64,000 nucleotides of DNA, from the sequence record PV660452, one strand, 5' to 3'. Made by a program: the position numbers and the translations under genes. Positions 5,964-42,286 of this stretch are shown here, in pieces. Below the pieces are notes generated by a model. It was not told the origin of the DNA. It searched no databases and worked only from the letters and a program-made list of their open reading frames with translations. Source of the stretch: Escherichia phage LF82-9. Numbering within the stretch: the first letter of the stretch is position 1; each line of letters starts with the position of its first letter.

Positions 5964-5996
5964 ATAGGTCTATTATATCATAATATTTAGAGACCT
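5964..5996 (-). promoter_or_regulatory. Stem-loop-embedded TATAAT element upstream of gene 55 (promoter-stem-loop cassette; -35 weak)
   Basis: 8-bp inverted repeat ATAGGTCT/AGACCTAT enclosing minus-strand TATAAT. Confidence 0.35.
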
Positions 5997-6014
5997 ATCT
6001 TAAAGCACGAGATA

Positions 6015-6284
6015 CTATCGGAGCAAACAATAAGCCTGGAATACTTTTTCCATTAAACGTTTGAACTCATGGATATCGATATAAAGCTCGGTTAATCCAG
6101 CTCCATAAAGAAAATCTAAAAAGTTCTCATGTGTTTCGTTATAGTCGCCTTCGTTTAATTGAGATACATGAGTTTCCCAAAAACCGACACCTTTAACAAA
6201 TGGAAAATACGTAACTTTCATAAAGTTGTCGACGTAAAATTCGCCCAGCTTTTCTTCAGTTATACTGATTCGAGTTAATTTCAT
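6015..6284 (-). CDS. Hypothetical protein (89 aa)
   Basis: ORF track; coupled 4-nt overlap with the upstream gene. Confidence 0.45.
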   Translation of the reverse strand: MKLTRISITEEKLGEFYVDNFMKVTYFPFVKGVGFWETHVSQLNEGDYNETHENFLDFLYGAGLTELYIDIHEFKRLMEKVFQAYCLLR

Positions 6285-6508
6285 TCTAGTTCCTTTGCTG
6301 CAAATAAGGCAGCATCCAATGAATCAAATTGGTCAACGAAATCAATATTCAACGCATCGTCAACCGTAGCATATAACCACCATTGTTTGAATTCGTATTC
6401 TAGAATAAATCCAGGACCTTCAATCTGAGGAAGACCTAGGCTATTTGTACCAACTTCGTAACCAGCTAGACGCAGGTCATTAATCAAAGTTTCTGTTAAT
6501 ACGCTCAT
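6281..6508 (-). CDS. Hypothetical acidic protein (75 aa)
   Basis: ORF track. Confidence 0.45.
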   Translation of the reverse strand: MSVLTETLINDLRLAGYEVGTNSLGLPQIEGPGFILEYEFKQWWLYATVDDALNIDFVDQFDSLDAALFAAKELE

Positions 6509-6837
6509 TTTGCCGCCTTAACAATTTTCAGGTCAACGAATTTTTTCTTACGTTGATTTTTCATACGACGGATAGTCTTTTCAGAGATTTCATGTTTCTG
6601 ATAAGCTTTAGATTCAACACCAAATGCAGCAACGTCAAATTCAGAAAGAATATATTGTACTAGAATTTCACGAATAGAATTACGTCCAATTTTCTGGTCG
6701 TGTTTTTGCATGATTTCATAAAGACGGAATTCCCACGCGTCAAGAACTTGAGGAGTAACAATACCACCTTTTTCTAGAAGACTAACAACTTTATCGAAAG
6801 CGAAAGAGTTCACTACGTTTTTGATTTTAGTAGACAT
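6505..6837 (-). CDS. Hypothetical protein (110 aa from ATG MSTKIKN)
   Basis: ORF track 6505..6876 begins at a TTG; ATG at 6837 is preceded by GAGGAAAATAAT. Confidence 0.5.
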   Translation of the reverse strand: MSTKIKNVVNSFAFDKVVSLLEKGGIVTPQVLDAWEFRLYEIMQKHDQKIGRNSIREILVQYILSEFDVAAFGVESKAYQKHEISEKTIRRMKNQRKKKFVDLKIVKAAK

Positions 6838-6868
6838 ATTATTTTCCTCTGTTATTTTATTATCCAAC

Positions 6869-6905
6869 GAGAGCATTATACTCTGCTCTCAAGAGTTTGT
6901 GCGTT
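6869..6905 (-). promoter_or_regulatory. Promoter-stem-loop cassette (TATAAT inside 7-bp stem GAGAGCA/TGCTCTC); near-identical copy at 36955-36998
   Basis: Minus-strand TATAAT; 44-nt segment repeated with one mismatch 30 kb away. Confidence 0.45.
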
Positions 6906-7143
6906 ATTTCGTGATAAGATAATGTAAATAGTTTGCTTGACGAACACTGATATCAACACCCATATCAAAGATACCTTTATAGAACGGGTATTTGTTTTCA
7001 GTAGAATCTAGACTAAAAGCCTTTCCGCCACAACTAACGGTAATAGCATCAGTTAAAGTGTCATATACAAACTTAATAGTTGAGCCGTTCACTACAACTT
7101 CAAGACGTTTTTTCGATGTAATAATGTCTAATTCTTGTTCCAT
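6904..7143 (-). CDS. Hypothetical protein (79 aa)
   Basis: ORF track. Confidence 0.45.
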   Translation of the reverse strand: MEQELDIITSKKRLEVVVNGSTIKFVYDTLTDAITVSCGGKAFSLDSTENKYPFYKGIFDMGVDISVRQANYLHYLITK

Positions 7144-7198
7144 GATATTCTCCTCAAATTGGTAGGAAGAAGTGTTATCTTCCTACCATCATAAACTA

Positions 7199-7411
7199 TT
7201 AACCGAACTTTTTAGCGCCTTTCCAGCCTTCGTACATAATTGCGCAAGTCAATAGCACAGCATGTTGGCATTCTTTGTATTTGTAAATCCAGAACCAGCG
7301 TAAAAAGTCTTCATCCTCAACACCGTTGAGTTTCATATTGGCAAAGAATTCGGCACGTTCTTCACGAAGCTTTTGCGATAACATAGATTCAGGATTCATT
7401 TTGTATTCCAC
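7199..7411 (-). CDS. Hypothetical protein (70 aa)
   Basis: ORF track. Confidence 0.45.
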   Translation of the reverse strand: MEYKMNPESMLSQKLREERAEFFANMKLNGVEDEDFLRWFWIYKYKECQHAVLLTCAIMYEGWKGAKKFG

Positions 7412-7530
7412 GCCCCATTTTCATCGATGAACTTAATCCAGTCATTTACAGACCATTTAGTTGTATCACCCTTTGGATTAACATTTAAAGTATATAATCC
7501 TTGCTTAAAAAGCATTCGTTTGATATTCAT
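7396..7530 (-). CDS. Hypothetical small protein (44 aa)
   Basis: ORF track 7396..7623 trimmed to the internal ATG after the stop of the upstream gene. Confidence 0.25.
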   Translation of the reverse strand: MNIKRMLFKQGLYTLNVNPKGDTTKWSVNDWIKFIDENGAWNTK

Positions 7531-7537
7531 AATTTCC

Positions 7538-7831
7538 TCAACTGTAACGATAACATTCGTTAGCTTTACGTTTGGCTTCAGTATGAGAAGTATTATAATC
7601 ATACTCTTCTTTACTGTAAACATCTTTTTTCAACTTACGAACTTCTTTGCGGAGTTGTCGATTCATTTCATTCTTGACTTCAGAATCAACACCTTTCATA
7701 CGTTTCCATTTATCTGAGCGGAAGATGTTTTCAACCATGTCTTTGTGGCTAACACCGTCAGGAGCTTTACGCTTACCAAAATAGTCGTAATCGCGAACTT
7801 TCAAATCTTTACGACGATATGTTTTACCCAT
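7538..7831 (-). CDS. Hypothetical basic protein (97 aa)
   Basis: ATG at 7831 with SD GAGG; the ORF-track start at 7858 is non-ATG. Confidence 0.45.
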   Translation of the reverse strand: MGKTYRRKDLKVRDYDYFGKRKAPDGVSHKDMVENIFRSDKWKRMKGVDSEVKNEMNRQLRKEVRKLKKDVYSKEEYDYNTSHTEAKRKANECYRYS

Positions 7832-8087: not shown

Positions 8088-8266
8088 GGCTTAATTTCCT
8101 TCGCAATTGAACAGAAGATACTACGGTCACAAAGCATTTCACCAATTTCTGGGTATTTGATTGAACGGTACCAAACATCCAGGCTTGAAACTCTGGTTAT
8201 CTGTACTGCATTACCGTTGACAGAATAGTACTGGTCAACCTTAATTTCTTTATCTTCAATTGTCAT
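8084..8266 (-). CDS. Hypothetical small protein (60 aa)
   Basis: ATG at 8266 with SD GAGGAAAA; ORF track gives a longer upstream extension. Confidence 0.4.
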   Translation of the reverse strand: MTIEDKEIKVDQYYSVNGNAVQITRVSSLDVWYRSIKYPEIGEMLCDRSIFCSIAKEIKP

Positions 8267-8294
8267 TTTGTTTTCCTCTATAGCAGATGGTTTA

Positions 8295-8323
8295 ATCTTA
8301 ACATATCTATCGAGGATGTAAAC
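8295..8323 (-). promoter_or_regulatory. Candidate early promoter (GTTTAC-N17-TAAGAT)
   Basis: Minus-strand GTTTAC -35 motif with a weak -10. Confidence 0.3.
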
Positions 8324-12584: not shown

Positions 12585-12755
12585 TCAATATTCTCTATAA
12601 AAGTTACGATGAGAACGTTTAGCTTTGCGAAGCTGACGTTTAGTAGGACGAACTGTAAATAGTTGTCCAGAGAAAAAATTCGAATCGGTTTTAATAAGCA
12701 AATACCAATCATGCTTGCCATTTTTTAATAAACGGTACAATAATTTAACTTGCAT
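12585..12755 (-). CDS. Hypothetical small basic protein (56 aa)
   Basis: ORF track 12585..12782 trimmed to ATG at 12755. Confidence 0.3.
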   Translation of the reverse strand: MQVKLLYRLLKNGKHDWYLLIKTDSNFFSGQLFTVRPTKRQLRKAKRSHRNFYREY

Positions 12756-12903
12756 AATAATCTCTTCCCATTTCCATATCAATTAATTCATTTATTGAAG
12801 GTTCATCATAACATGGTTCTTCGTCGTTGTAAACCGTTTCGACGTCTGGCTCGACAGTCTCCCATCGAGCAGAATACCACGGTTTAACCCCGGAGTTTAT
12901 TGA
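12745..12903 (-). CDS. Hypothetical small acidic protein (52 aa); below ORF-track cutoff
   Basis: Manual translation MKSSINSGVKPWYSARWETVEPDVETVYNDEEP... Confidence 0.3.
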   Translation of the reverse strand, partial: SINSGVKPWYSARWETVEPDVETVYNDEEPCYDEPSINELIDMEMGRDYYAS

Positions 12904-14505: not shown

Positions 14506-15455
14506 TATAACACCTCAATGGCATTTCGTAAACCGTCCGCTTTCGCATTCAGAGCTTTTAACGATTTAGTCTGTTCTTTAATCTGGGCTTCGACTTCTTT
14601 CAGACGAGATTTGAGATATTCACGTTCTTCGCTCAAGTTGTCAACTTTTTCTACTTTAGGTTCTTTAATAGTCTTAAGTTTATACTCGTTAGGGTTCTTC
14701 AGCTTAATTCGGGTGCGAGAACTGTATAACATTGAACCGTTATCTTCGGATTCGTCGAACGTTTCAACAACATCCATAGTCTCTAACAATGTAATAAGTT
14801 TATAAGACAATGAACGAACGGTTTTGTTATGCTTATTAATTTCTTCAGCTTTCATGGTACCGAGATTACGTGAGTAGTAATAAGGAACCTGGATATCAAT
14901 TGATAATGATGCGTTACCATTACCGGTCGGTTTGAATACTGCAGTAACCCAATCTTTAACATGAACTTTATTTGTACGACCATCACCGCCCGTGAATAAT
15001 TTACGAGAATGTTTAAAAAGCATATTCACTTGGTTATTGAATTCACAAGCAAATTTATCAGCGAATTTAGTTTCAGGAATGGTAGATAACCAATCAGCCA
15101 AATGAGTCTTTTTAACATCATTAATAATAGTGAATTCAACCAAATCAGTTTTAGATGTCACAGATTTAATAAAGCTCGGTTTCATAAAGTTTTTAATGTT
15201 ATCGCGAGCTACAGTAGAAGATAATAAACGAGAACGTTTGAACCATTGAAGCAGTGTCCCTAATGAATGAGAATACGCATTCTGAGTATCTTTACAGATA
15301 TGATTTTCTTGACCTGTGTATGTACCAAAATCGCGAAGAATACCACTTACTACATCTCGGTGTGGAACATCAAATCCTAGTGCACCAACAGCGCGCTGGG
15401 CACGAACGTTAGCGATAAGACCGGCAAAGTATTCAATGTAATGTGAACGTGTCAT
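14505..15455 (-). CDS. Hypothetical protein with C-terminal coiled coil (316 aa); first of three similar-sized genes
   Basis: ORF track; C-terminal ~60 aa K/E/L heptad-like; own upstream promoter cassette. Confidence 0.6.
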   Translation of the reverse strand: MTRSHYIEYFAGLIANVRAQRAVGALGFDVPHRDVVSGILRDFGTYTGQENHICKDTQNAYSHSLGTLLQWFKRSRLLSSTVARDNIKNFMKPSFIKSVTSKTDLVEFTIINDVKKTHLADWLSTIPETKFADKFACEFNNQVNMLFKHSRKLFTGGDGRTNKVHVKDWVTAVFKPTGNGNASLSIDIQVPYYYSRNLGTMKAEEINKHNKTVRSLSYKLITLLETMDVVETFDESEDNGSMLYSSRTRIKLKNPNEYKLKTIKEPKVEKVDNLSEEREYLKSRLKEVEAQIKEQTKSLKALNAKADGLRNAIEVL

Positions 15456-15480
15456 AATATTTTCCTCTCGTTAAGATAGA

Positions 15481-15513
15481 TTTATTATACTCCAACCATC
15501 CTTGGTTGTAAAC
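15481..15513 (-). promoter_or_regulatory. Early-promoter cassette (TTTACA-N17-TATAAT with spacer hairpin); 30-bp exact repeat of 16501-16530
   Basis: Minus strand reads GTTTACAACCAAGGATGGTTGGAGTATAAT; CAACCA/TGGTTG inverted repeat. Confidence 0.6.
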
Positions 15514-15517: not shown

Positions 15518-16477
15518 TTATGATTTTAATGCATTCATTGCATTAAAAAGTTTAGAGTACTGCAACTGGAGATTCGTTACAACACTTTGAGCATCACGAA
15601 GCTTAGCTTGTGCTTTGTCAAGTTCAACGGACAGTTGGTCTGCAGTAGCCTTGATTTGGTTGTAATGATAATCTTCGGCCGGAAGAAGGTCATTAGAAAC
15701 ATTTAGTTTTACTGCCGACAGTTTGCACACATTTGGCAAACCTTTAAACATACCGGGTTGTGTCGGAGAATATGCGCTTAGAACCTCTGCATTACCGACT
15801 GGTGTTGCTGTAATATTGCCTTCAAACAATGCATTTTCCTTTTTAAGATTTTGATAGTATTCAGAGTCTTTGTGCCACCATGGCGCAGGAACCTTTTTAC
15901 CAATAGATACACGAGCCTGGATAGCGATATGGCCCTTATTCTTGATAGGGTCGATAATATTAAGCTCACGAGAATAAATTGCTTTAATTTGGTGAATATT
16001 ATCACCTAACACTTCCAACGCTTGGTGGAATACACGAGCAACGTTATCGTTCTTAGGTTTATATGTAAGAGTGAACTCGTTCTCACTGATAACCATGATT
16101 TCTAACTTATCGTAAGTATATTTCAAATGTTTCATGTTAATTGCTTGAGGACGAATACGAGAAGCAATGGCCATCAGATTGTTAAGGTTATTTCGGAACT
16201 GTTTAGCGAAATATTGTCCTTCACCGCCGATACAAAAATTACGAAGTTTCTGTTTGGCTAATAAACGGCTGAACTCACCATTTTTAATGAACTCTTTAAC
16301 GGGTGTGTTAGTAATGCATTCAAATTGAGTAAACATACGAGAATTAATCCCATAATATGAACAGATTTCCTCAATCTCTTCAGGAGTCTTTACAGGCATA
16401 CGGATAGGATTAGGTCCTGGAGTATATGCGTTCGAGGTAAATTCTTTGATAAGTTCTCTACGTGTAATAAAAGCCAT
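15518..16477 (-). CDS. Hypothetical protein with C-terminal coiled coil (319 aa); second of three
   Basis: ORF track; flanked by 30-bp direct repeats. Confidence 0.6.
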   Translation of the reverse strand: MAFITRRELIKEFTSNAYTPGPNPIRMPVKTPEEIEEICSYYGINSRMFTQFECITNTPVKEFIKNGEFSRLLAKQKLRNFCIGGEGQYFAKQFRNNLNNLMAIASRIRPQAINMKHLKYTYDKLEIMVISENEFTLTYKPKNDNVARVFHQALEVLGDNIHQIKAIYSRELNIIDPIKNKGHIAIQARVSIGKKVPAPWWHKDSEYYQNLKKENALFEGNITATPVGNAEVLSAYSPTQPGMFKGLPNVCKLSAVKLNVSNDLLPAEDYHYNQIKATADQLSVELDKAQAKLRDAQSVVTNLQLQYSKLFNAMNALKS

Positions 16478-16500
16478 TTTATATTCCTCATGTTGAAAAA

Positions 16501-29486: not shown

Positions 29487-29492
29487 TTTTCC

Positions 29493-32534: not shown

Positions 32535-32840
32535 TTATTTTCCTCGACATTCTTTAATGAAATTTTCTAGATTGGTAGATTCAATAGCTTTTTTACGAGC
32601 TTCTGCATGTTCTTCTTCAGACAATTTACATTTATAATTAACCCAGACGTTATGGTCAAAACTAGTCGTGGCATATAATAACAAAGCCCCGACGAATAAT
32701 AAAAATGGCGATAAGAATACAAAACCAGGAACACCATCCATATCGTAAGCCTTTTGTAATACTGCAACAGAAAGAGCTGCGTAAAAAAGTGATACAAATA
32801 TTGTTAAAAGACCAATTCGGTTGGTTTCTGTTAATTTCAT
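32535..32840 (-). CDS. Hypothetical membrane protein (101 aa) ending in ENFIKECRGK
   Basis: Two hydrophobic helices; shared C-terminal motif. Confidence 0.5.
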   Translation of the reverse strand: MKLTETNRIGLLTIFVSLFYAALSVAVLQKAYDMDGVPGFVFLSPFLLFVGALLLYATTSFDHNVWVNYKCKLSEEEHAEARKKAIESTNLENFIKECRGK

Positions 32841-32868
32841 AATATTCTCCTCATGTTTTAATAGGACT

Positions 32869-32898
32869 ACTATAACATAGTCCTATAATTGTGTAAAC
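32869..32898 (-). promoter_or_regulatory. Early-promoter cassette (GTTTAC; ATAGGACTA/TAGTCCTAT stem)
   Basis: Minus strand GTTTACACAATTATAGGACTATGTTATAGTAGTCCTATT. Confidence 0.5.
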
Positions 32899-33895: not shown

Positions 33896-34147
33896 TTAAA
33901 TTTCACGACATGCGATATTATATTCATCCCAGAGGTCATCATGTGAAGCCTCTACCAATGGAACGATTGTACCGTTTATGTCTTCATTATAAGGGCAAAT
34001 TGTACAGTGCGCATCTTCGAATCGGATGCCTTTGTGTTCAGATTTTTTATAACGCATATCGAATATCTTTGCAAACTTTTCACGAGTAATGGTTTTACCA
34101 ACCACTTTGGTTCCGATACTTTCGTAATAAATCATTGTGGACTCCAT
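33896..34147 (-). CDS. Hypothetical protein (83 aa)
   Basis: ORF track. Confidence 0.45.
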   Translation of the reverse strand: MESTMIYYESIGTKVVGKTITREKFAKIFDMRYKKSEHKGIRFEDAHCTICPYNEDINGTIVPLVEASHDDLWDEYNIACREI

Positions 34148-34163
34148 TTGTTTTGATAGGACT

Positions 34164-34193
34164 ACTATAACATAGCCCTATCTTGTTGTAAAC
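34164..34193 (-). promoter_or_regulatory. Early-promoter cassette (GTTTAC; ATAGGACTA / TAGCCCTAT stem)
   Basis: Near-duplicate of the cassette at 32869-32898. Confidence 0.5.
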
Positions 34194-34686: not shown

Positions 34687-34992
34687 TTAGCACAACGCAG
34701 AAGACGAAACCCAAGCACCTTCAGTAATAACGTAACCATTACCTTCACGCTTAACATCGCCACCATTATTTTCAATTTCATCTTTCATCCACTGGGATAC
34801 GATTTCACCCTTAGGATAATAAGTACGACCGCTACCATAATCACCTACAGAAAACGATACAGCGTATTGGTCTGCAATCTTTGTAGCTTCTTCTTCGATA
34901 CGTTCAGCTTGATTCAGAAGTTTATAAATTGCATCTGAAGCGGATTTGGCATCATTAAACTCTGGTACTTTAATTTCAATAATCTTACTCAT
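34687..34992 (-). CDS. Hypothetical protein (101 aa); paralog of the previous gene (C-terminus GAWVASSALC)
   Basis: Shared N- and C-terminal motifs with 34405..34677. Confidence 0.5.
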   Translation of the reverse strand: MSKIIEIKVPEFNDAKSASDAIYKLLNQAERIEEEATKIADQYAVSFSVGDYGSGRTYYPKGEIVSQWMKDEIENNGGDVKREGNGYVITEGAWVSSSALC

Positions 34993-35348
34993 TTTCTACA
35001 TTCCTTAATAAAGTTTTCTATTGTTTCATTTTCACGTCTAGCTAGGAGTTCATTATAACTAATCATTTGAGAAGCGTAAACCTTTTTATTTTTCTTGTTA
35101 TGGTTTATAAAATCGTAGTAAAAATAGACTACAGTACAAAATGATGCGATGGATGCAAAGGCTTGAGTATATCGTAAGTCCTGCCATTGGTCTGTGAATC
35201 CACCGGTGTTCCCTATAAATCCTAACACAACTCCGTCAATAAGAAATCCAACTAATCCAAAGGCAAATCCCATGCCAATACTCATAATAAAAATTAGAAT
35301 GTTCTCACCGAGAGAAGGCCGTACGGTTAAGAGTTGAGGCTTTTGCAT
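34989..35348 (-). CDS. Hypothetical membrane protein (119 aa) ending in ENFIKECRK
   Basis: Two hydrophobic helices; shared C-terminal motif. Confidence 0.5.
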   Translation of the reverse strand: MQKPQLLTVRPSLGENILIFIMSIGMGFAFGLVGFLIDGVVLGFIGNTGGFTDQWQDLRYTQAFASIASFCTVVYFYYDFINHNKKNKKVYASQMISYNELLARRENETIENFIKECRK

Positions 35349-35722
35349 CTTATTTCCTTAACGAATTCCATAGCTTCTTCATATTCATACTTTTTAACAG
35401 CTTCAACATACTGAGCTTGGGCTTTTGCGCACTGAACTTTCCACTCGCGAACTCGAGCTCTGTGATGACGGCCTTGGTGCCAATATCCTGCCCAATTAAT
35501 AGGCATTAATAAAAACGGTACAATAAGTGGTGCGACGAACATTAATGAAAACGCTGCATCAGACGTTATAACTTTATTGGAATCTAAAATAGCTCCTATA
35601 ATCATAAAGATTAAAAATGCTAAAGCTAAAATAGGGCCAAATAGTACTTCGTTTGGGATTAATTTACGTTTGTATTCGTATGCCCAGGGCTTAATTGGCA
35701 TGTACAGGGTTGGCTTTGACAT
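35327..35722 (-). CDS. Hypothetical membrane protein (131 aa) ending in MEFVKEIRC...
   Basis: ORF track 35327..35752 trimmed to ATG at 35722; hydrophobic helices. Confidence 0.45.
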   Translation of the reverse strand: MSKPTLYMPIKPWAYEYKRKLIPNEVLFGPILALAFLIFMIIGAILDSNKVITSDAAFSLMFVAPLIVPFLLMPINWAGYWHQGRHHRARVREWKVQCAKAQAQYVEAVKKYEYEEAMEFVKEIRCKSLNS

Positions 35723-36308
35723 ATTCTCTACATTCCATAATAAATTGCTCAAGGATTAAATTGTTAGTGAAATTAGGACTAACAACCATAGTTTCATAAA
35801 GCGCATCAATAGCACTTAAAGCATCAACTCTTTTAAGCAAAGGCTTGCCTTCATACATAGTTTCAGAATCGATGATTAACGTAAAGTAATATTTTTTATT
35901 ATCGACTAGAACTTCTGTATCGATATAAAACATATTAGACCTCAGAAGCTTATCTCTAAAACCATAATAATCTTCTGAACGTTCGCTGATATATTCCCAT
36001 TCAGTGTTTAAACAACAAACAGACCATGTAGGAGCAACGAAATCAGTGAATCTAATATCATGGTCTGCAACTAGTTTAGCAATAGCTCCGATATCATGAA
36101 TCATAATACCTGGGGCTAATAAAGATTTTCGGCGATTTGCGTATTCAGTTGTCTCATAAGAAGCTGACCAGTACCATTTACGTCCAGTTGCAACATATCG
36201 TAATGAATCAACTAAAGACGTAGGTGGATTTACCTTATCTCGGAACTCTTCGAACATTGAGTCAATATCATTATTTTGGTTTCGCATGTTAACTCCTTTA
36301 TTATCCAA
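35691..36308 (-). CDS. Hypothetical protein (205 aa) ending in EQFIMECREY...
   Basis: ORF track. Confidence 0.55.
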   Translation of the reverse strand: MDNKGVNMRNQNNDIDSMFEEFRDKVNPPTSLVDSLRYVATGRKWYWSASYETTEYANRRKSLLAPGIMIHDIGAIAKLVADHDIRFTDFVAPTWSVCCLNTEWEYISERSEDYYGFRDKLLRSNMFYIDTEVLVDNKKYYFTLIIDSETMYEGKPLLKRVDALSAIDALYETMVVSPNFTNNLILEQFIMECREYVKANPVHAN

Positions 36309-36336
36309 AAGGAGGACCGGAGTCCTCCGTATTATT

Positions 36337-36930
36337 TTATTTCAAAGAGTTAATATATTCTTGTACATCAGCAGAAGTGGTTTCGACACCGGCTGGAGTA
36401 CCATTGAACGTTTCAACACGAGTCAGAGTGTCTTCGATATCAACCTTAGTCAGTGCAGCGATTTCAATTACATCATCGGCCGTAGAGATACCAAGGGCAT
36501 TGGCTGCTCGAGTTTCACGAATGTATTCGAGTTTGATTGCCAGGTTCTGACGAGCATCGTCAAGTTCAACCACCTTACGAGCAATTTCAATTCGCATAGC
36601 GGCATACCCGTCAGCTTTTGTATTAAGTTGTTCGGCAGTTCGACGATACAGAAGACCAAGCTTAGCATGCATGGTAACATCTTGTCCTTCAGCCAGGAGC
36701 TTACGAATTTCACGTTCCTTAGAAGCGGCTTGCTTGTTCTTTTCATTAACAAGTTCGCGAATACGTTTTTCTTCATTAATAGATTTAACAGAAGCCGTTT
36801 TTAGTTCTTTGATCTGGGTAATCAACTTATCTGCAGCTGCGTTATACTGTTCTTCGACAGTCAGATTTTTAGCCATAGCAGTACCCAGTTTAGTGCGGAT
36901 AAATTCAACAAGTTTCTTCAGTGTGTTCAT
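36337..36930 (-). CDS. PspA/IM30-like all-helical coiled-coil protein (197 aa); assignment tentative
   Basis: Length and continuous heptad-rich composition resemble the PspA/Vipp1 family; ATG at 36930 with SD AAAGGTAA. Confidence 0.4.
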
Positions 36931-36971
36931 ATTATTACCTTTCAATTGGTGGTTTATTATCCAATGAGAGC

Positions 36972-37000
36972 ATTATACTCTGCTCTCAAGAGTTTGTAAA
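36972..37000 (-). promoter_or_regulatory. Early promoter (TTTACA-N17-TATAAT inside GAGAGCA/TGCTCTC stem); near-identical to 6869-6905
   Basis: Minus strand TTTACAAACTCTTGAGAGCAGAGTATAATGCTCTC. Confidence 0.55.
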
Positions 37001-37228
37001 TTATTTTTTAATCAAATTGACATAAAACTTGGCGTCTTCGGGGTGCATGCCTTCGCAGTATTCTTCAACCATGAAATTCTTAACAGCTTCATAAGGACCA
37101 CTCAGATTAAGCTCAGTTGTCCAAAACTTGGAATCTTGGACTGAATCGATACGAACTTCAGGATGACGATTGCGAATAACTTCTTCGGTGTATTCATAAT
37201 CAACGACATCAATACTAACTTTAGCCAT
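37001..37228 (-). CDS. Hypothetical protein (75 aa)
   Basis: ORF track. Confidence 0.45.
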   Translation of the reverse strand: MAKVSIDVVDYEYTEEVIRNRHPEVRIDSVQDSKFWTTELNLSGPYEAVKNFMVEEYCEGMHPEDAKFYVNLIKK

Positions 37229-37258
37229 TTTGTTTCTCCTCTTGATTTGATGTGATTA

Positions 37259-37287
37259 CTATAACATAAACGTACTTAGATGTAAAT
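37259..37287 (-). promoter_or_regulatory. Early promoter (TTTACA-N17-TATAGT)
   Basis: Minus strand TTTACATCTAAGTACGTTTATGTTATAGT. Confidence 0.5.
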
Positions 37288-37441
37288 TATTTCAACGTCA
37301 CCTTTAGCGGCTTTATAACCTTCAGCCCAAGATACAACAGAGTTTTTATCTGAGGATTCAAATTCAGGCATTGGACTTTCACCAATATTCACACAGTATG
37401 TTTCTTCATTTTCATCGAACCAAATAATTAAAGTAGTCATT
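37277..37441 (-). CDS. Hypothetical small protein (54 aa); below ORF-track cutoff
   Basis: Manual translation MTTLIIWFDENEETYCVNIGESPMPEFESSDKNSVVSW... Confidence 0.35.
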
Positions 37442-37470
37442 TTGTTTACTCCTTTGTAGTTGATAAGTCT

Positions 37471-37499
37471 ATAGTATCACCATCCTTGGTGCTTGTACA
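37471..37499 (-). promoter_or_regulatory. Early promoter (TGTACA-N17-TACTAT)
   Basis: Minus strand TGTACAAGCACCAAGGATGGTGATACTATAGACTTATC. Confidence 0.45.
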
Positions 37500-37502
37500 C
37501 AA

Positions 37503-37766
37503 TTATTTCATATTATTGAAATATTCTTCTGCGATTTCGTCGTTATCATGGTAAACTTTAGAAGACAGTTTAACATAACCTTCTGCCGTGAACATGTTAA
37601 TCACAACCTTTACAGTATACCACTGACCGTCTTCATTACCCATTACTGCGTAAGTTTCAAACATCGGATGATCAGGACCAATAACTTTAATATCATTCAC
37701 TGTACGACCGAAATCTTCTGAAACACATTTCATAAAGAAGTTGAACAGTTCGCCGTAATTATCCAT
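37503..37766 (-). CDS. Hypothetical protein (87 aa)
   Basis: ATG at 37766 with SD GGAG. Confidence 0.45.
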   Translation of the reverse strand: MDNYGELFNFFMKCVSEDFGRTVNDIKVIGPDHPMFETYAVMGNEDGQWYTVKVVINMFTAEGYVKLSSKVYHDNDEIAEEYFNNMK

Positions 37767-37809
37767 TTCATTCTCCAAATTGTTTTCTGTATCAGTAGTT
37801 GATAGTTGT

Positions 37810-37839
37810 ATAGTACCATGGAAGAACAGGGATGTAAAC
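37810..37839 (-). promoter_or_regulatory. Early promoter (GTTTAC-N18-TACTAT)
   Basis: Minus strand GTTTACATCCCTGTTCTTCCATGGTACTATACAACTATC. Confidence 0.5.
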
Positions 37840-37975
37840 AGTTTTGTGAAAAAATTTTTTAAAAAGTTTTAGGGAATTCTAGGGTCAGGAGGGACAATTA
37901 AAAGGTAGGATAATATATTATAAAGGGTATAAACTAAATGATGCCCAGAGAGGCCCGGAAAGGCCTAGATACCAA

Positions 37976-38000
37976 AAAGCCCCAACCTTTCGGCTGGGGC
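37976..38000 (-). terminator. Intrinsic terminator (GCCCC/GGGGC family) after the internal-protein gene
   Basis: AAAAGCCCCAACCTTTCGGCTGGGGC; U-run on the minus-strand RNA. Confidence 0.7.
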
Positions 38001-38008
38001 TAAGAATG

Positions 38009-38482
38009 TTATATGATTTGTTTAGCAGACCAAATGCGGTCTTTAATAATTTTTTGGATGTCTTCAACATATTCAAGAGAGTGAACATGTGGGTTATCTT
38101 TGAAACTATAAGCACGAGCTAGCTTTTGGCCTTCAGTTTTGATTATCAAAAGTTCTTTAAGAATTGCTTCATACCTAGAGATAATTCCTTTAGCAATATT
38201 TTTTTCTTGTGCTGCTTTAGGGTCAGCCTTAGGAGCAGGTTTACCTGAAGCCTTTGCAAAAGCAGCTCCAGTAGCAACTAAACTTTTCCAAGCCATACTA
38301 ACTGCATTCCCTGTAAATCCTTCGGCTTTCATATCACGAGCAAATTGGAATCGTGATTCATCGGAAGCATCTTTATAGGAATATTTACCCGCGGCAATGG
38401 CAGCTTTTGCAACAGCTTGAATTTCAGTGCTAGATGCTTCATTTAACACCGCTTCATTTAAAAATTGAGCATATGATTTCAT
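38009..38482 (-). CDS. Internal-protein-like with capsid-targeting leader (MKSYAQFLNEA), 157 aa; late-promoter driven
   Basis: Leader similarity; A/K-rich body; TATAAATA upstream. Confidence 0.6.
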   Translation of the reverse strand: MKSYAQFLNEAVLNEASSTEIQAVAKAAIAAGKYSYKDASDESRFQFARDMKAEGFTGNAVSMAWKSLVATGAAFAKASGKPAPKADPKAAQEKNIAKGIISRYEAILKELLIIKTEGQKLARAYSFKDNPHVHSLEYVEDIQKIIKDRIWSAKQII

Positions 38483-38518
38483 CTTATTTCCTGTTTTAAT
38501 TCGTGGTTTTAATATACT

Positions 38519-38526
38519 TATTTATA
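38519..38526 (-). promoter_or_regulatory. T4-type late promoter TATAAATA
   Basis: Exact consensus on the minus strand ~37 nt upstream of the ATG at 38482. Confidence 0.5.
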
Positions 38527-38529
38527 CTA

Positions 38530-38556
38530 AAAAGCCCCAACCTTTCGGTCGGGGCT
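38530..38556 (-). terminator. Intrinsic terminator (GCCCC/GGGGC family)
   Basis: AAAAAGCCCCAACCTTTCGGTCGGGGC; U-run on the minus-strand RNA. Confidence 0.7.
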
Positions 38557-38560
38557 AAGC

Positions 38561-38760
38561 CTTGCGGCAACCTTGTCGGGGTTCCACCTGCTAAGGCAAG
38601 TGTTTGTACGAAACGCCGGGATTCGAACCCGGTTATTAAGCAGTTGACGCTACTCAATATTTTTAAAAGGCCATATCTCGACCATATCCGAACGTTCCGT
38701 CAAAAACGCTACTCGGCTTACGGCAAAGATATTTCCTCGAATCGATAATTCGGTGCGCCG
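38561..38760 (-). ncRNA. Candidate small stable RNA / tRNA-like remnant (T4 species-1/2 RNA region analogue)
   Basis: No plausible ORF; canonical tRNA T-arm CCGGGTTCGAATCCCGG at 38616-38632 (minus) without a full cloverleaf; ends at a terminator. Confidence 0.3.
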
Positions 38761-38843
38761 TTTCTGCTGTGATGTAAGAGGGCATCAATAAACGCAAAGA
38801 TTATTAACGCAATTCCTTACTCAGGGAACATCAGTCCGACGAC

Positions 38844-39398
38844 TTACCGGTAGCGACCCGGTTTCTCATTTGGTATTTCAAATTGTGTAGATTTAGTATC
38901 TAATTTTTTAACTATGGAACTTATGTCATGAAAGAAAAACCATTCACCATTTATATGGTCCTGATTATAAATGCTGTGCATATATTTTTCAAGTTCTACT
39001 GCATCCTGGGAATATCTAAATGATACTATTTTAAAACTTTTAAACGGTGAAAATGTATTTGCTGTTATAACTCTAACATCAGGTTCTATACTTCTTCCTA
39101 TTTTATAATAATTAGGATTTGTAGTATCTACCATTATGTATACGAAAGCCTGTCGATAGCTTTTTTCTATATCAAATTCATCTTTAAATTTCAAAAGATT
39201 TAGGGCGGCAGTCCTACAAAATACTTTCCATTTTGACAAGCGTTTGGCTTCAGTCATAGAAAAGAATTTTTTCTTATCTGTTATTTTAAGAAAAGCAACA
39301 TTTTCAATTAGTTCTTGTGTTATTTCAAAATTACCATGGTATATTAATCCAGCTTTTATAGCCAAATTAATTTGGTCCCAGTCTACATCACTTCTCAT
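38844..39398 (-). CDS. T5orf172/GIY-YIG-like domain protein (184 aa) adjacent to the tRNA cluster; possible seg-type endonuclease relative
   Basis: Motif FVYIMVDTTNPNYYKIGRS resembles the GIY...YIG/T5orf172 core, but in the middle of the protein. Confidence 0.4.
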   Translation of the reverse strand: MRSDVDWDQINLAIKAGLIYHGNFEITQELIENVAFLKITDKKKFFSMTEAKRLSKWKVFCRTAALNLLKFKDEFDIEKSYRQAFVYIMVDTTNPNYYKIGRSIEPDVRVITANTFSPFKSFKIVSFRYSQDAVELEKYMHSIYNQDHINGEWFFFHDISSIVKKLDTKSTQFEIPNEKPGRYR

Positions 39399-39419
39399 AA
39401 TATTATTCTCTCAATAATT

Positions 39420-39496
39420 TGGTCAGGGTGAAAGGATTCTAACCTTTAACCTGCGGTTTAGAGGACCGCTACTCTATACAATTGAGTTACACCCCG
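39420..39496 (-). tRNA. tRNA-Arg (anticodon UCU)
   Basis: Manual cloverleaf: anticodon stem GCGGT/ACCGC, loop CCUCUAA, T-arm AAAGG-TTAGAAT-CCTTT, encoded CCA. Confidence 0.7.
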
Positions 39497-39622
39497 TAAT
39501 TAGTTCACAGCAATACCTACTCCAACAATCAAGATGTCTTCACACGAAATTAAGAGAAGTGTGATCAGTTCAACCCCTATAATCGCGTCAAGTAGATATT
39601 AATGTGACAGTTGTCACAAGTT

Positions 39623-39697
39623 TGGCGGACATGCATGGATTCGAACCATGGACCAATTGATTAACAGTCAACTGCTCTACCACTGAGCTACACATCC
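39623..39697 (-). tRNA. tRNA-Asn (anticodon GUU)
   Basis: Manual fold: D-arm GCTCAGTGGTAGAGC, anticodon loop CUGUUAA, T-arm CATGG-TTCGAAT-CCATG, encoded CCA. Confidence 0.65.
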
Positions 39698-39701
39698 AAA
39701 T

Positions 39702-39788
39702 TGGTGGGGAGTGGTGGAGTCGAACCACCCGAGTCGCAATGACAATGAATTTACAGTCCACACCGCTACCTCTACGGGATAACTCCCC
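39702..39788 (-). tRNA. tRNA-Tyr (anticodon GUA), long variable arm
   Basis: 87 nt; acceptor GGGGAGT/ACTCCCC, anticodon loop CUGUAAA, T-arm GGTGG-TTCGACT-CCACC. Confidence 0.55.
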
Positions 39789-39794
39789 TTAATT

Positions 39795-39869
39795 TGGTGG
39801 CCCTGGGTGGAATTGAACCACCATCTGGCGATTATGAGTCGCTTGCTTGAACCTTCCAGCTACAGGGCC
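39795..39869 (-). tRNA. tRNA with CAU anticodon (Met or lysidine-modified Ile)
   Basis: Acceptor GGCCCTG/CAGGGCC, anticodon loop CUCAUAA, T-arm GGTGG-TTCAATT-CCACC, CCA encoded. Confidence 0.65.
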
Positions 39870-39870
39870 T

Positions 39871-39946
39871 TGGTGCTGATTAACGGAATCGAACCGCCGA
39901 CCTTCTCATTACAAGTGAGTTGCTCTACCTACTGAGCTAAATCAGC
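39871..39946 (-). tRNA. tRNA-Thr (anticodon UGU)
   Basis: GCTGATTTAGCTCAGTAGGTAGAGC...CUUGUAA...GGCGG-TTCGATT-CCGTT; matches T4 tRNA-Thr architecture. Confidence 0.8.
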
Positions 39947-39951
39947 AAAAC

Positions 39952-40041
39952 TGGCGGAGGCGATAGGATTTGAACCTATGAGTCGCCGGAGCGACTGCCG
40001 GTTTTCAAGACCGGTGCATTAAACCACTCTGCCACGCCTCC
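39952..40041 (-). tRNA. tRNA-Ser (anticodon UGA), long variable arm
   Basis: GGAGGCGTGGCAGAGTGGTTTAATGCACCGGTCTTGAAAACCGG... matches T4 tRNA-Ser. Confidence 0.85.
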
Positions 40042-40043
40042 AG

Positions 40044-40117
40044 TCTCCATACAAGGATTTGAACCTTGGACCTCCTGATCCCAAATCAGGCGCTCTACCA
40101 AACTGAGCTACACGGAG
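40044..40117 (-). tRNA. tRNA-Pro (anticodon UGG); 3-prime CCA not encoded
   Basis: Anticodon stem-loop CCTGA-TTTGGGA-TCAGG; T-arm CAAGG-TTCAAAT-CCTTG. Confidence 0.75.
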
Positions 40118-40127
40118 TAAATTAAAT

Positions 40128-40201
<74 letters not shown>

Positions 40202-40206
40202 AAATT

Positions 40207-40293
40207 TGGTGCGAGAAGTGGGACTCGAACCCACAAGGAAATCATTCCGCAGCATTTTAAGTGCTGTGCCTTTACCAATTTGACCATTCTCGC
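40207..40293 (-). tRNA. tRNA-Leu (anticodon UAA)
   Basis: GCGAGAATGGTCAAATTGGTAAAGGCACAGCACTTAAAATGCTGCGG...GGGTTCGAGTCCCACTTCTCGCACCA matches T4 tRNA-Leu. Confidence 0.88.
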
Positions 40294-40294
40294 G

Positions 40295-40367
40295 CTGGGA
40301 ATAAAGGACTCGAACCTTTGCATCCTGGAATCAAAATCCAGTGCCTTACCAACTTGGCTAATTCCCA
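40295..40367 (-). tRNA. tRNA-Gln (anticodon UUG); CCA not fully encoded
   Basis: TGGGAATTAGCCAAGTTGGTAAGGC...CTGGA-TTTTGAT-TCCAG...GGTTCGAGTCC resembles T4 tRNA-Gln. Confidence 0.8.
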
Positions 40368-40453
40368 ATTATTAACAAAGGCTCTCAAACAAGAACCCTT
40401 GATGATAGAGGGTATTAATCAGTGCGGTATAAGTTAATAATAACAAATAATTC

Positions 40454-40969
40454 TTAAAGCAAATTAAACATCTTAACGGTCGGCAAAACAATTTCTTCTT
40501 CTATATAAGAGTATTTAACACTCTCAACTACACGCAAAAAATCATAATCATAATACTCAGAAGCATTACCTAAAATATTAATAAGTCCTTCAAGCACTTT
40601 ATTACCATTCACAAAGAATAAGTCAAATACACGTTCTTCATCTTCTTCAGATTTATTACCAAGGTCAACTTCTATATCAAAGACCTTTTTAATGAATTCT
40701 GGATAAAGTTGGTCTGAGAACAGTCCTTCAACCAAGTATTCATAGATAAAAAGCGATTGCTCACTGAACGAAGCATTACCACAATAGTGATCAACTTTTG
40801 TGCTAGAATGACGGCTTTTAAACTTCTTTAAAAGATATTGGAATTGTAAGATTTCATGCTCTTCTACACCAAACAATGTTTTGGTTTTATAGTTGTCACC
40901 GTCATTTTCCCATGTAGTTACATCAATCACATAACCCTGCGGAATTGTAGTACCTAAACAAATATTCAT
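40454..40969 (-). CDS. Hypothetical acidic protein (171 aa)
   Basis: ORF track. Confidence 0.5.
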   Translation of the reverse strand: MNICLGTTIPQGYVIDVTTWENDGDNYKTKTLFGVEEHEILQFQYLLKKFKSRHSSTKVDHYCGNASFSEQSLFIYEYLVEGLFSDQLYPEFIKKVFDIEVDLGNKSEEDEERVFDLFFVNGNKVLEGLINILGNASEYYDYDFLRVVESVKYSYIEEEIVLPTVKMFNLL

Positions 40970-41259
40970 TTGCTCACCATATTAATGTAAGTATATTCAA
41001 TACATTCAAGACCCAAAGGATTCTTGAAAATATCATATTCAAGAGGACCTTTTTCCGTTTCAATAAAGAAATCAAAATTTACTGTATTAAATTTACGGTC
41101 TTCCTTCACTAATTTAACTTGAGAAGATGAACGGTCAACATAAACCTTTTCAACTTCAAAACACGTTAAAACGCCATAATCATCAATCAAGGCTTTAGCT
41201 GCTTCTTGATCATATTTATATCCATTTTCAATGGATGATACTTTTGCATAAAGAATCAT
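40966..41259 (-). CDS. Hypothetical protein (97 aa)
   Basis: ORF track; coupled overlap. Confidence 0.45.
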   Translation of the reverse strand: MILYAKVSSIENGYKYDQEAAKALIDDYGVLTCFEVEKVYVDRSSSQVKLVKEDRKFNTVNFDFFIETEKGPLEYDIFKNPLGLECIEYTYINMVSK

Positions 41260-41261
41260 TG

Positions 41262-41672
41262 TCAGCCTCTATCAACGATAGCATGAGTATGGGCATTTAC
41301 GATTTGCCACCAGTCGAAACGATTGGAACCATAATCTGGTTTATTTTCATTTTCTTTAATGATATCACGCAGCTTATCTTCTGTTTCAGCATACGCAATT
41401 AAATCATCATATCCACCGCAAGGATAATAATTATCACCTGCGAATAAAAGAAAATTTACCTTAGATGGATTTACGTAATAATGGTCTTTAGGATATTTAG
41501 TTCCTCTCCAATCAGTTACTTCAACATAACGGTAAGAAAATCCATTTTTACTTTCAATCCAACTCCACGCTTCAAAAGGAGTATTAAAAACTTTATCAGG
41601 TATTAAATTACCTTCAAAATGAGAAGGATTTGCATAATCCCCAGCATAAACATAATATTCGTTAATACTCAT
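41262..41672 (-). CDS. Hypothetical protein (136 aa), Y/W-rich
   Basis: ORF track. Confidence 0.5.
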   Translation of the reverse strand: MSINEYYVYAGDYANPSHFEGNLIPDKVFNTPFEAWSWIESKNGFSYRYVEVTDWRGTKYPKDHYYVNPSKVNFLLFAGDNYYPCGGYDDLIAYAETEDKLRDIIKENENKPDYGSNRFDWWQIVNAHTHAIVDRG

Positions 41673-41858
41673 TTATTCACCTTTAGAAATTTTATCCATA
41701 ACGATAGTGATTAAACCAATTAAAAATGCTACTACAAGTGAAAAAACATTTTCTGCTGTAGTTAATAATCCGCATATAAATCCAACAAACATTGAAAAAC
41801 TAAAAGCAGAAGCAGAAATTGCAATAGCAACATTTCGAATTAATTCACAGCGTTTCAT
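41673..41858 (-). CDS. Hypothetical small membrane protein (61 aa)
   Basis: Two hydrophobic helices. Confidence 0.45.
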   Translation of the reverse strand: MKRCELIRNVAIAISASAFSFSMFVGFICGLLTTAENVFSLVVAFLIGLITIVMDKISKGE

Positions 41859-41886
41859 TTTATTCTCCTCAGTAGTTGATAGGGTA

Positions 41887-41916
41887 ATAGTATCACAACT
41901 AAAACCCTATGTAAAC
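41887..41916 (-). promoter_or_regulatory. Early promoter (GTTTAC-N18-TACTAT) with TAGGGT/ACCCTA stem
   Basis: Minus strand GTTTACATAGGGTTTTAGTTGTGATACTATTACCCTATCAAC. Confidence 0.55.
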
Positions 41917-41934
41917 AACTTTGTGAAAAATTTA

Positions 41935-42222
41935 TTACAAAAGATTTTTAGCAATAATTTTAAGCTGAGCTACTGAAATATGCTTGGCTTTAAACAAAGC
42001 AGTTTCTTCAGCAGGGGAGATAACGATTGTAGCACCATCTTTCTTAGCGGACCATCCATCACCAAGGTAAACAGTACCTTTGACTTCTTCTCCATCAACC
42101 AGGCTAATCATCGGTTTACCTTCACGTCCTTTGTTTGCTTTAATAACTTCGGAAGTAAGGGTCGCTTCGGTCAGAGTAGAAACGTTAGCATCAGGTGATA
42201 TAAATTCTTTATAGGTTTTCAT
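41935..42222 (-). CDS. Internal-protein-like (IPI-position) with capsid-targeting leader (MKTYKEFISP), 95 aa
   Basis: Leader similarity; sits just upstream of 57B as ipI does in T4. Confidence 0.6.
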   Translation of the reverse strand: MKTYKEFISPDANVSTLTEATLTSEVIKANKGREGKPMISLVDGEEVKGTVYLGDGWSAKKDGATIVISPAEETALFKAKHISVAQLKIIAKNLL

Positions 42223-42256
42223 TTTATTTCCTTGAGGTTGTTTATTTTATAGGATG

Positions 42257-42286
42257 ATAGTAACACACCATCATCCTTATGTAAAC
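42257..42286 (-). promoter_or_regulatory. Early promoter (GTTTAC-N18-TACTAT) with AGGATGATG/CATCATCCT stem
   Basis: Minus strand GTTTACATAAGGATGATGGTGTGTTACTATCATCCTAT. Confidence 0.6.

Follow-up and report, generated by a model that had tools for sequence, protein, structure and literature searches.

Early-promoter cassettes, about half with a predicted hairpin, between the accessory genes of the RB69-like Escherichia phage LF82-9

Promoter-early stem-loops (PeSLs), cassettes that unite an early promoter with a stem-loop, have been described in T4-type phages (Arbiol et al. 2010, PMC2839356; Comeau et al. 2014, PMC4122927), and both papers cite Repoila et al. 1994 for earlier promoter plus stem-loop elements at T-even internal-protein loci. 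A PeSL occupies the intergenic space from the stop codon through an AT-rich region, the -35, the -10 and the Shine-Dalgarno (SD) sequence to the ATG, with the stem-loop set between -35 and -10 elements or overlapping the latter. The cassettes cluster in hyperplastic regions at the joints of insertions and deletions (indels) or replacements, and chimeric cassettes result from crossover. These features, the stem-loop at only part of the sites, recur in the DNA analyzed here, a 64,000-nucleotide (nt) stretch of Escherichia phage LF82-9 (sequence record PV660452; the whole stretch is called the window), in which copies of an early-promoter cassette with the -35 GTTTAC separate accessory genes of the minus strand. 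RB49-type PeSLs have near-consensus TTGACA promoters and G/C-run stems reported as terminators, whereas the stems in the window are AT-rich, are not followed by a U-tract and often include the SD. By sequence comparison, the window belongs to an RB69-like (Mosigvirus) T-even phage.

The second system of relevance is the promoter placed inside a hairpin that hides the ribosome-binding site (RBS), a textbook mechanism of T4. Hairpins that sequester the initiation region and contain an internal promoter are known from T4 e, soc, 49, I-TevI and segB and from Aeh1 mobE. The cassettes of the window share with the e/soc/49 type the position of the 5' arm upstream of the proximal transcription start, an arrangement in which only long transcripts fold and hide the SD. 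The difference lies in timing, as the internal promoters of the e/soc/49 type are late (gp55) and the genes are described as all late, whereas here the internal promoters have the early consensus and the genes (regB, denV, 55.6 and mobD.2a) are early.

The pattern GTTTAC-N16-19-TANNAT has 14 exact matches in the window against 1.23 expected, all 14 on the minus strand, and the stricter form GTTTAC-N16-19-TAYTAT has 6 matches against 0.10 expected. A two-block weight matrix, iteratively refined and used at a cut-off of at least 14 bits, returned 23 minus-strand sites. The site at 18489 was judged not credible and dropped; the remaining 22 span positions 7621-42286 and lie 20-55 nt upstream of start codons with which they are co-oriented (22/22). 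Run on the whole window, the matrix found no site on the plus strand and none beyond 45.8 kb, in the late-gene block (45.8-64 kb). An earlier note on this DNA had counted more than 20 copies of the motif and suggested a weight matrix scan as the check; the count held. A generic scan for sigma-70 promoters of the TTGACA/TATAAT type showed no enrichment (66 and 64 matches against 71 and 68 in shuffles), and the signal is therefore specific to the phage GTTTAC motif. In an independent repeat search, the cassettes were the largest direct-repeat families in 5-45.8 kb (53-65 nt, 60-88% identity).

The consensus consists of an A-rich stretch, GTTTACa, a spacer of 17 nt (5 sites) or 18 nt (17 sites) ending in TGn, TAtaAT, and CCTATCAA at about -3 to +5. 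Within the -35, the G and the middle T are each conserved at 19/22 sites and the two flanking T and the AC at 22/22 each; A is found at 15-20 of the 22 sites in the UP-like positions just upstream. Within the -10, T-12, A-11 and T-7 are invariant (22/22 each), and G occupies -14 in 18/22. Because the stop codon of the upstream gene usually lies 0-15 nt before the -35 and intergenic gaps are uniform (52-77 nt), a cassette is essentially the entire intergenic region. It runs from this stop codon and an A-rich UP region through GTTTAC, the spacer, TAnnAT and CCTATCAA to a leader of about 20 nt, GGAG, an A-rich stretch and the ATG. The -10 given in the earlier note, TA(C/T)TAT, applies to 6 sites only, the others having TATAAT, TATAGT or TATTAT. 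The conserved leader described there, AGACCTATCAAC, is present with at most three mismatches at only 10/22 sites, and taken by itself the 12-mer shows weak enrichment (12 against 4.8 expected); its truly conserved part is CCTATCAA, which corresponds to the initiation region in the consensus of the promoters.

Judged by motif and position, these sites are probably the sigma-70-dependent early promoters of the T-even phage group, which have already been catalogued and are not new. For RB69, 58 early promoters were predicted and their coordinates published (Nolan et al. 2006, PMC1524935). The matrix, run on the syntenic 49 kb of RB69, returned 25 sites, and all 25 appear in that predicted-early list when the fixed 14-nt offset of the published model is allowed for. 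In a matrix comparison with T4, the motif was also found before regB, denV, ipI, trna.4 and other genes. Early promoters of T4 have been mapped by experiment; the T4 GenBank record contains no promoter features in the 40-kb stretch examined. The likeness to the RB69 and T4 early promoters extends to the A-rich -40 region, GTTTAC, the GT-rich extended -10, TAnnAT and the C-rich -3 to -1, at the same genes and in the same orientation. Relative to the RB69 promoters nothing essential differs, and the present phage departs from RB69 in a few gained, lost or chimeric cassettes. The early-promoter interpretation offered before is thus supported. Taken together, it appears probable that the cassettes are early promoters, that about half of them carry a hairpin formed in read-through RNA only, in some cases masking the SD, and that they serve as homology patches for gene exchange.

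Two sites, 29193-29222 and 35052-35081, have the sequence GTTTACGCTT, in which a GCTT resembling a MotA box lies at about -30, and neither has a hairpin. Because the GCTT directly follows the -35, both are probably dual early/middle promoters. Their RB69 equivalents are listed as both early (Pe) and middle (Pm) promoters, namely, Pe:64193 and Pm:64182 for the promoter upstream of an internal-protein gene (29159-29222; stem p = 1.0) and Pe:70143 and Pm:70132 for the promoter inside the 3' end of e.3 (34990-35081).

Inverted repeats were scored at each site as the best ungapped stem with the 5' arm beginning upstream of the predicted transcription start, assumed to be 7 nt after the -10, and compared with 300 shuffles in which spacer and leader were shuffled separately. 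The stems exceeded the shuffles with p ≤ 0.05 at 11 of the 22 sites and with p ≤ 0.01 at six. Judged as PeSL stem-loops, 11/22 sites thus qualify by significance and 14 when the short hairpins inside the spacer (3 sites) are counted, while about 7 sites are without any stem. The earlier note had an inverted repeat usually pairing the promoter with the RBS region; this is overstated, as half of the stems are significant and only four, or five with a weak one, reach the SD. An unbiased scan of 40.8 kb ranked the short-range inverted repeats; of the 36 strongest, 7 fell in cassettes, which make up 3.8% of the sequence (p = 3.5e-4), and these 7 include the top two.

One alternative is that the sites are plain early promoters and nothing more, with repeats arising as a by-product of a T/C-rich spacer facing a purine-rich RBS and of the shared GTTG...CAAC consensus. 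The 7-8 of 22 sites without a stem fit this explanation, and so does the duplex energy of a spacer with the leaders of other sites, still -8.2 kcal/mol, so that some complementarity is generic. The spacers nevertheless prefer their own leaders (-11.45 kcal/mol, compared with -8.18 for other leaders; p = 5e-5 by permutation), T4 (-13.98 against -8.77) and RB69 show this preference too, with p = 5e-5 in each of the three genomes, and composition-preserving shuffles are exceeded at 11/22 sites. The complementarity exceeds a composition effect. This alternative was already disfavoured on these grounds and is regarded as unlikely.

The stems fall into two main classes. In the first, the 3' arm covers the SD, as in four cassettes. 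The regB cassette (26693-26752) has a 14-bp stem, TTCTCCTCTAGTTG/CAACTAGAGGAGAA (p = 0.003), the strongest inverted repeat in the 40.8 kb, whose loop holds the -10 and the predicted transcription start and whose 3' arm is the SD; this was the example chosen in the earlier note. In the denV cassette (29904-29963), the spacer TTCCTCCAAG pairs with the SD-containing CTTGGAGGAA over 10 bp (p = 0.003); upstream of 55.6 (8264-8323; 39.6 bits), TCCTCGATAG pairs with CTATAGAGGA (p = 0.037); and upstream of mobD.2a (site 22499), TTCTCCTC pairs with GAGGAGAA (p = 0.017). A weak fifth case is the cassette at 28792-28856 (29.3 bits), which serves either vs.8 or a 36-codon open reading frame (ORF), the gene served being uncertain; its spacer TTTCTCCTAG pairs weakly with the TAGAGGGG region (duplex -12.9 kcal/mol).

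In the second class, seven cassettes in number, the spacer pairs with -7 to +5 and the -10 lies in the loop or is overlapped by the stem. The strongest, upstream of a mobD.2-like ORF (21990-22050), has a 12-bp stem, TTGGTAGGACTA/TAGTCCTACCAA (p = 0.003), and is the second strongest inverted repeat in the 40.8 kb. The others are upstream of nrdC.8 (18116-18174; 49.1 bits; AGGTCTAT/ATAGACCT, p = 0.027; the leader is an exact AGACCTATCAAC), the RB69ORF133c homologue (32838-32898; 51.7 bits; ATAGGACTA/TAGTCCTAT, p = 0.007), the ORF135c homologue (34133-34193; 48.4 bits; GATAGGGCTA/TAGTCCTATC with one G-U, p = 0.02), e.6 (36928-37001; -35 ATTTAC; repeat family D12, with a degraded copy at 6843-6920; TGAGAGCA/TGCTCTCA, p = 0.01), trna.4 (41856-41916; ATAGGGT/ACCCTAT, p = 0.05) and an ipI-type internal-protein gene (42220-42286; 50.9 bits; AGGATGATGGT/ACTATCATCCT overlapping the -10, p = 0.007).

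Orthologous cassettes taken from IMG/VR retain the pairing with other letters. For regB, five lineages have differing yet complementary arms, namely, the RB69-type CTAGTTG/CAACTAG, the T4 arms CTTGACTG/CAGTTAAG with two G-U pairs, CTTTATG/CATAAAG, TCTCCTGTAAG/CTTACAGGAGA, and a fifth with two helices. With the anti-SD/SD pair as the anchor, the aligned regB stems show two to four different canonical pairs at six positions across the lineages, and a register shift lowers the pair count in most of them. In denV orthologues the SD is always paired although the arm sequences differ, and the anti-SD occupies one of two places upstream of the transcription start, the spacer or the few bases from the -10 to +1. 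In trna.4 orthologues the hairpin that loops out the -10 is retained, and its arm cores are AGGGT/ACCCT, GGGAT/ATCCC, GGGCT/AGCCC, AGGACT/AGTCCT and GGGTT/AACCC. Arms that differ at the regB, denV and trna.4 orthologues yet stay complementary likewise speak against the repeats being a by-product of promoter composition. MAFFT with RNAalifold set the arms of the regB cassettes out of register, recovered only the anti-SD/SD core and was replaced by the SD-anchored alignment, and a loose IMG/VR pattern scan (GTTTAC..TANNAT..GGAG..ATG) returned mostly unrelated contigs. Among the non-Watson-Crick positions of 58 unique stems, G-U (41) outnumbered A-C (23; p about 0.03-0.05), which weakly favours folding of the sense RNA.

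In about half of the cassettes, the complement of the spacer is found downstream of the -10. Because this 5' arm is upstream of where transcription is predicted to start, the hairpin would form in read-through RNA and not in RNA from the cassette's own promoter. For folding, the read-through RNA began 40 nt upstream of the -35 and ended at +30 in the ORF, and the own-promoter RNA began at the predicted +1. The mean unpaired probability of the SD core in 21 cassettes rose from 0.29 in read-through RNA to 0.57 in own-promoter RNA (Wilcoxon p = 5e-5), compared with 0.37 and 0.41 in 59 cassette-free control genes of the same geometry (cassettes against controls, Mann-Whitney p = 1.5e-4). A strict switch, from below 0.3 to above 0.6, was predicted for 5/21 cassettes and 0/59 controls; to this extent, the SD is predicted to be paired in the long RNA and free in the short one, as in the sequestering hairpins of the e/soc/49 type. 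The values for read-through and own-promoter RNA were 0.01 and 0.67 for 55.6, 0.00 and 0.53 for mobD.2a, 0.00 and 0.61 for regB, 0.00 and 0.41 for denV, and 0.15 and 0.80 for the cassette at 28856. In these predictions the accessibility effect is specific to the SD core.

In the mechanism that we propose for the subset with an SD as 3' arm (regB, denV, 55.6, mobD.2a and probably one or two more), the masked genes would be translated mainly from their own immediate-early transcript. As the internal promoter is early, the predicted effect is the reverse of that in the late genes, with translation confined to the first minutes of infection. The idea of a masked RBS in read-through transcripts, raised in the earlier note, gained from the folding results and the regB covariation; it is clear in only about one-quarter to one-third of the cassettes, so that masking has support as a prediction for some of them, mainly regB, denV, 55.6 and mobD.2a. 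In the remaining hairpin cassettes, the -10 is in the loop and the stem ends a few nucleotides before the SD. These hairpins have no U-tract after them and, in read-through RNA, may mark a boundary of stability or processing or serve as an attenuator.

Two further observations concern translation initiation in this region. The classical hairpin of the lysozyme gene e is present at 30732-30759 on the minus strand (AATACCTCC...GGAGGTATT-ATG) and hides the initiation region, with a late-promoter-like AATAAATA overlapping the start of its 5' arm; it is a positive control for the logic of a promoter inside a hairpin. Many cassette RBSs read GGAGAATAAAATG (e.g., 19583-19600, 41858-41875 and 37766-37783), that is, GGAG followed by an A-rich AAUAAAA element, which is reported as the efficient context for RegB/S1 cleavage (Durand 2006). 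Resistance to RegB would be expected of copies masked by a hairpin.

PeSL stem-loops were originally read as terminators or attenuators that insulate genes from upstream transcription. An RB49 PeSL stem-loop was reporter-tested for its function as a terminator, and the abstract terms the stem-loops effective transcription terminators (Arbiol et al. 2010, PMC2839356); in the window, a separate GC-rich hairpin stands upstream of three cassettes (8323, 19651 and 22499). The spacer-leader stems themselves are, however, AT-rich and followed by ATCAAAAC or ACTAC with no U-tract, so that by sequence they do not qualify as terminators or attenuators of the PeSL kind. The true terminators of the window are a distinct repeat, AGCCCC...GGGGCTTTTT (family D6), which adjoins only 3/22 cassettes. 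Insulation as the general role of the stems is therefore rather unlikely. One composite, the terminator at 22511-22538 joined to the 22499 cassette upstream of mobD.2a (22441-22538; family D6), fits the description of promoter-coupled terminators, bacterial elements in which the end and start signals of adjacent transcription units overlap (Fletcher et al. 2026 preprint, 10.64898/2026.08.19.745784). The elements of that study are intrinsic terminators contributing to promoter function, whereas most hairpins here are not terminators.

The repeats might instead be operators through which a dimeric DNA-binding protein of phage or host shuts the early promoters off. The shut-off mechanism of early promoters has been described as incompletely understood (Uzan and Miller 2010), and the repeats straddle the -10. 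Their arms are, however, wholly different between sites (AGGATG, TAGGACTA, GGTCTAT, TCTCCTCTAGTTG), and one-third of the promoters are without a repeat. As the arms differ at every site, there is no common recognition sequence; the repressor-operator idea was rejected for this reason and is considered very improbable.

The role of the cassettes in gene shuffling was analyzed in an alignment of the window to LF82-1, RB69, JK36, AV110, ST2 and PhAPEC2, in which a breakpoint is the end of an aligned block beside a gap of at least 40 nt. Of 64 indel-breakpoint clusters, 16 lay within the cassette intervals, which account for 4.9% of the region (p = 6e-8), and a breakpoint was found at 13 of 21 cassette-bearing gene junctions compared to 20 of 76 others (odds ratio, 4.6; p = 0.003). 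Two chimeric cassettes allow the crossover to be placed. The cassette upstream of nrdC.10 (19581-19651; preceded by the GC-rich hairpin at 19671-19697) has its 5' part from RB69 Pe:55296 and its 3' part from Pe:55018, joined within the shared ATGTTATTATAGACCTATC core, and RB69ORF102c, which lies between these two promoters in RB69, is absent from the window. AV110 has a single cassette made of the 5' part of the window's 16533 cassette and the 3' part of its 15513 cassette, joined within 27 identical bases, and the nrdC.5-like gene between the two is gone. The topology of the chimeric cassettes in the window and in AV110 is that drawn for PeSL-mediated excision (Arbiol et al. 2010, PMC2839356). 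Since the cassettes have 25-65 nt of similar sequence in common, they also serve, as the comparison with related phages shows, as homology patches for the deletion, insertion and exchange of genes. The PeSL-like shuffling proposed in the earlier note is thus borne out by the breakpoint enrichment and by two crossovers in the conserved core.

The two cassettes joined in AV110 stand upstream of nrdC.3 (15453-15513; short hairpin CAACCAaggaTGGTTG inside the spacer; repeat family D9) and of the nrdC.5-like gene (16475-16533; -35 ATGTAC, with the spacer and -10 of the 15513 cassette), and share an identical 27-nt core at the AV110 deletion junction. Further joints include a JK36 insertion breakpoint at 32895, in the cassette of the RB69ORF133c homologue; indel breakpoints at 37471-37532, at the cassette upstream of the ORF145c homologue (37438-37500; short intra-spacer hairpin CACCAaggaTGGTG); and mosaic joints on both sides of the trna.4 cassette. 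On a larger scale, positions 1-35,081 share 99.95% identity with Escherichia phage LF82-1, and the remainder is a mosaic of RB69-like (Mosigvirus) sequences. The identity to LF82-1 stops at 35081, exactly the first base of a -35, and resumes (99.7%) at 41935 beside another cassette; the 6.9 kb at 35081-41935 are a patchwork nearer to JK36, RB69 and T4.

That breakpoints cluster at the cassettes could also mean that the hairpins act as DNA, extruded as cruciforms or single strands that recruit recombination or resolution enzymes such as endonuclease VII and make the cassettes active recombination sites. In RB49, the crossover of a mini-circle lay within a PeSL stem-loop, and a protein recognizing stem-loops was suggested as a possibility (Arbiol et al. 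2010, PMC2839356). Both crossovers resolved here, by comparison, occurred in 19-27 identical bases, for which ordinary homologous recombination of T4 suffices. The stems tolerate G-U, as in the two G-U pairs of T4 regB, and A-C less often, which points to sense-strand RNA, and the 3' arms preferentially involve the SD, an RNA signal. A role of the hairpins as DNA is accordingly improbable, and exchange by homology between cassettes is the preferred account.

Two other kinds of repeats were observed in the same region. A GC-rich intrinsic terminator, AGCCCC(n)GGGGCTTTTT, occurs four times on the minus strand (22495-22538, 23118-23161, 37958-38001 and 38513-38556; 68-80% identity), and its copies flank two unrelated inserted genes, one encoding a DUF7338 protein (22543-23100) and one with an internal-protein-like N-terminus (38009-38482). 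A 594-bp segment is missing in five relatives, whose junction overlaps 29 nt in the terminator; as the junction lies within it, this second kind of repeat also acts as an indel joint. The 5' ends of five small genes are repeated as well (29130-29165, 29455-29490, 30215-30250, 38451-38486 and 42191-42226; 72-89% identity). They encode MKTYQEFI-like N-termini that resemble the shared capsid-targeting leaders of internal head proteins and provide extra homology for shuffling at internal-protein loci.

Several results weigh against the combined reading of the cassettes as early promoters with hairpins specific to read-through RNA and as homology patches. When the comparison of junctions was restricted to gaps of at least 40 nt, the difference was reduced to 13/17 against 8/18 (p = 0.055), and the enrichment may come partly from breakpoints falling between genes or from incoming genes that bring their own promoter. 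About 7-8 of the 22 cassettes are without a hairpin, which is therefore dispensable for promoter function, and the reading gives no role to the hairpins whose loop holds the -10. The accessibility of the whole region from -15 to +3 differed only marginally from the controls (p = 0.07). The excess of G-U is weak, and the sequences behind it are mutually related. Finally, the transcription starts are assumed ones, and the analysis of this phage is sequence-based throughout.

The remaining credible sites, all on the minus strand, are weaker or without a significant stem. A weak site (20.8 bits) with a long leader upstream of 55.4 (7528-7621) lies inside the 3' end of the 55.5 coding sequence (CDS), has a stem that is not significant (p = 0.11) and matches RB69 Pe:43242; an early-promoter-like site inside the 49.1 CDS (12753-12834; 27.9 bits) has no stem (p = 0.86) and matches RB69 Pe:48639. 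The cassette upstream of frd.3 (37226-37287; 39.5 bits) has no stem (p = 1.0), and that upstream of e.8 (37764-37839; 50.3 bits) has no significant one (p = 0.93).

Three minus-strand loci outside the set of 22 resemble partial cassettes. The site upstream of gene 55 (5943-6010), with which the earlier note began its series at 5964-6010, has a TATAAT preceded by TGa and a stem, ATAGGTCT/AGACCTAT; the GTTTAC is absent, and the site is in neither the early nor the middle promoter list for RB69. A degraded cassette upstream of 55.2 (6838-6920; family D12) shares 81% identity with the e.6 cassette, its -35 having decayed to ACGCAC, and is the counterpart of the weak RB69 site Pe:42515. The third, at 7141-7198, is a hairpin-only remnant with a perfect 11-bp stem, TGGTAGGAAGA/TCTTCCTACCA, at 7160-7188, 4 nt upstream of the SD of the gene at 6904-7143; it has no intact -10, the loop reading TAACAC. 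The RB69 counterpart of this hairpin is a predicted early promoter, Pe:42816, with a co-varying stem, and in the window the stem has outlasted its promoter.

Genes were named by comparing the window with the records of RB69 and T4. Those on the minus strand are 45, rpbA, 46, 47, 55, nrdH/G/D, 49, pin, nrdC.x, tk, vs, regB and denV, as well as e, nudE, a tRNA array, ipI, 57B/A, 1, 3, 2 and 4; the baseplate genes 53, 5 and 6 and onwards follow on the plus strand, starting at about 45.8 kb. The array at 39420-40367 comprises ten tRNAs (Arg, Asn, Tyr, Met, Thr, Ser, Pro, Gly, Leu and Gln), compared to two at this locus in LF82-1 and RB69 and ten in JK36, and its flanks rank among the most mosaic stretches of the window. 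An Rfam scan of the window returned tRNAs only.

Most of what the cassettes display is known. The promoters (Nolan et al. 2006) and the idea of the cassette as a shuffling joint (Arbiol et al. 2010; Comeau et al. 2014) have been published, and the finding as such, which identifies once more the early promoters and PeSL-type cassettes in a group of phages that is well studied, matters little; the clean chimeric cassettes do confirm the cassettes as joints of accessory-gene exchange. The aspect with value for follow-up is the complementarity of the spacer to its own leader or SD, which is site-specific, covaries and is also found in T4. Gating of early-gene translation by the origin of the transcript, backed by covariation and folding predictions only, is possibly the one new aspect. 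The words "translation" and "ribosome" do not occur in the main text of Arbiol et al. 2010 (PMC2839356), and an early-promoter version of the RBS-hiding hairpin is not described in the accessible reviews, one of which calls the known cases "all late genes", although earlier remarks on single genes (regB, denV) are possible.

More tentatively, an anti-SD in the non-transcribed part of the early promoter (the spacer or the stretch from the -10 to +1) might be a general gate of transcript origin in T-even phages. Under such a gate, regB, denV and other early genes would yield protein from their own immediate-early transcript only and would be silent, and protected from RegB at the GGAG, on delayed-early and middle read-through RNA. 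If this is true, a mechanism that reviews limit to late genes would be extended to the opposite temporal class, and part of the PeSL stem-loops would acquire a function. It would also provide timing control for early genes such as that of the RegB nuclease, explain the conservation of the stems and offer a compact design for synthetic operons.

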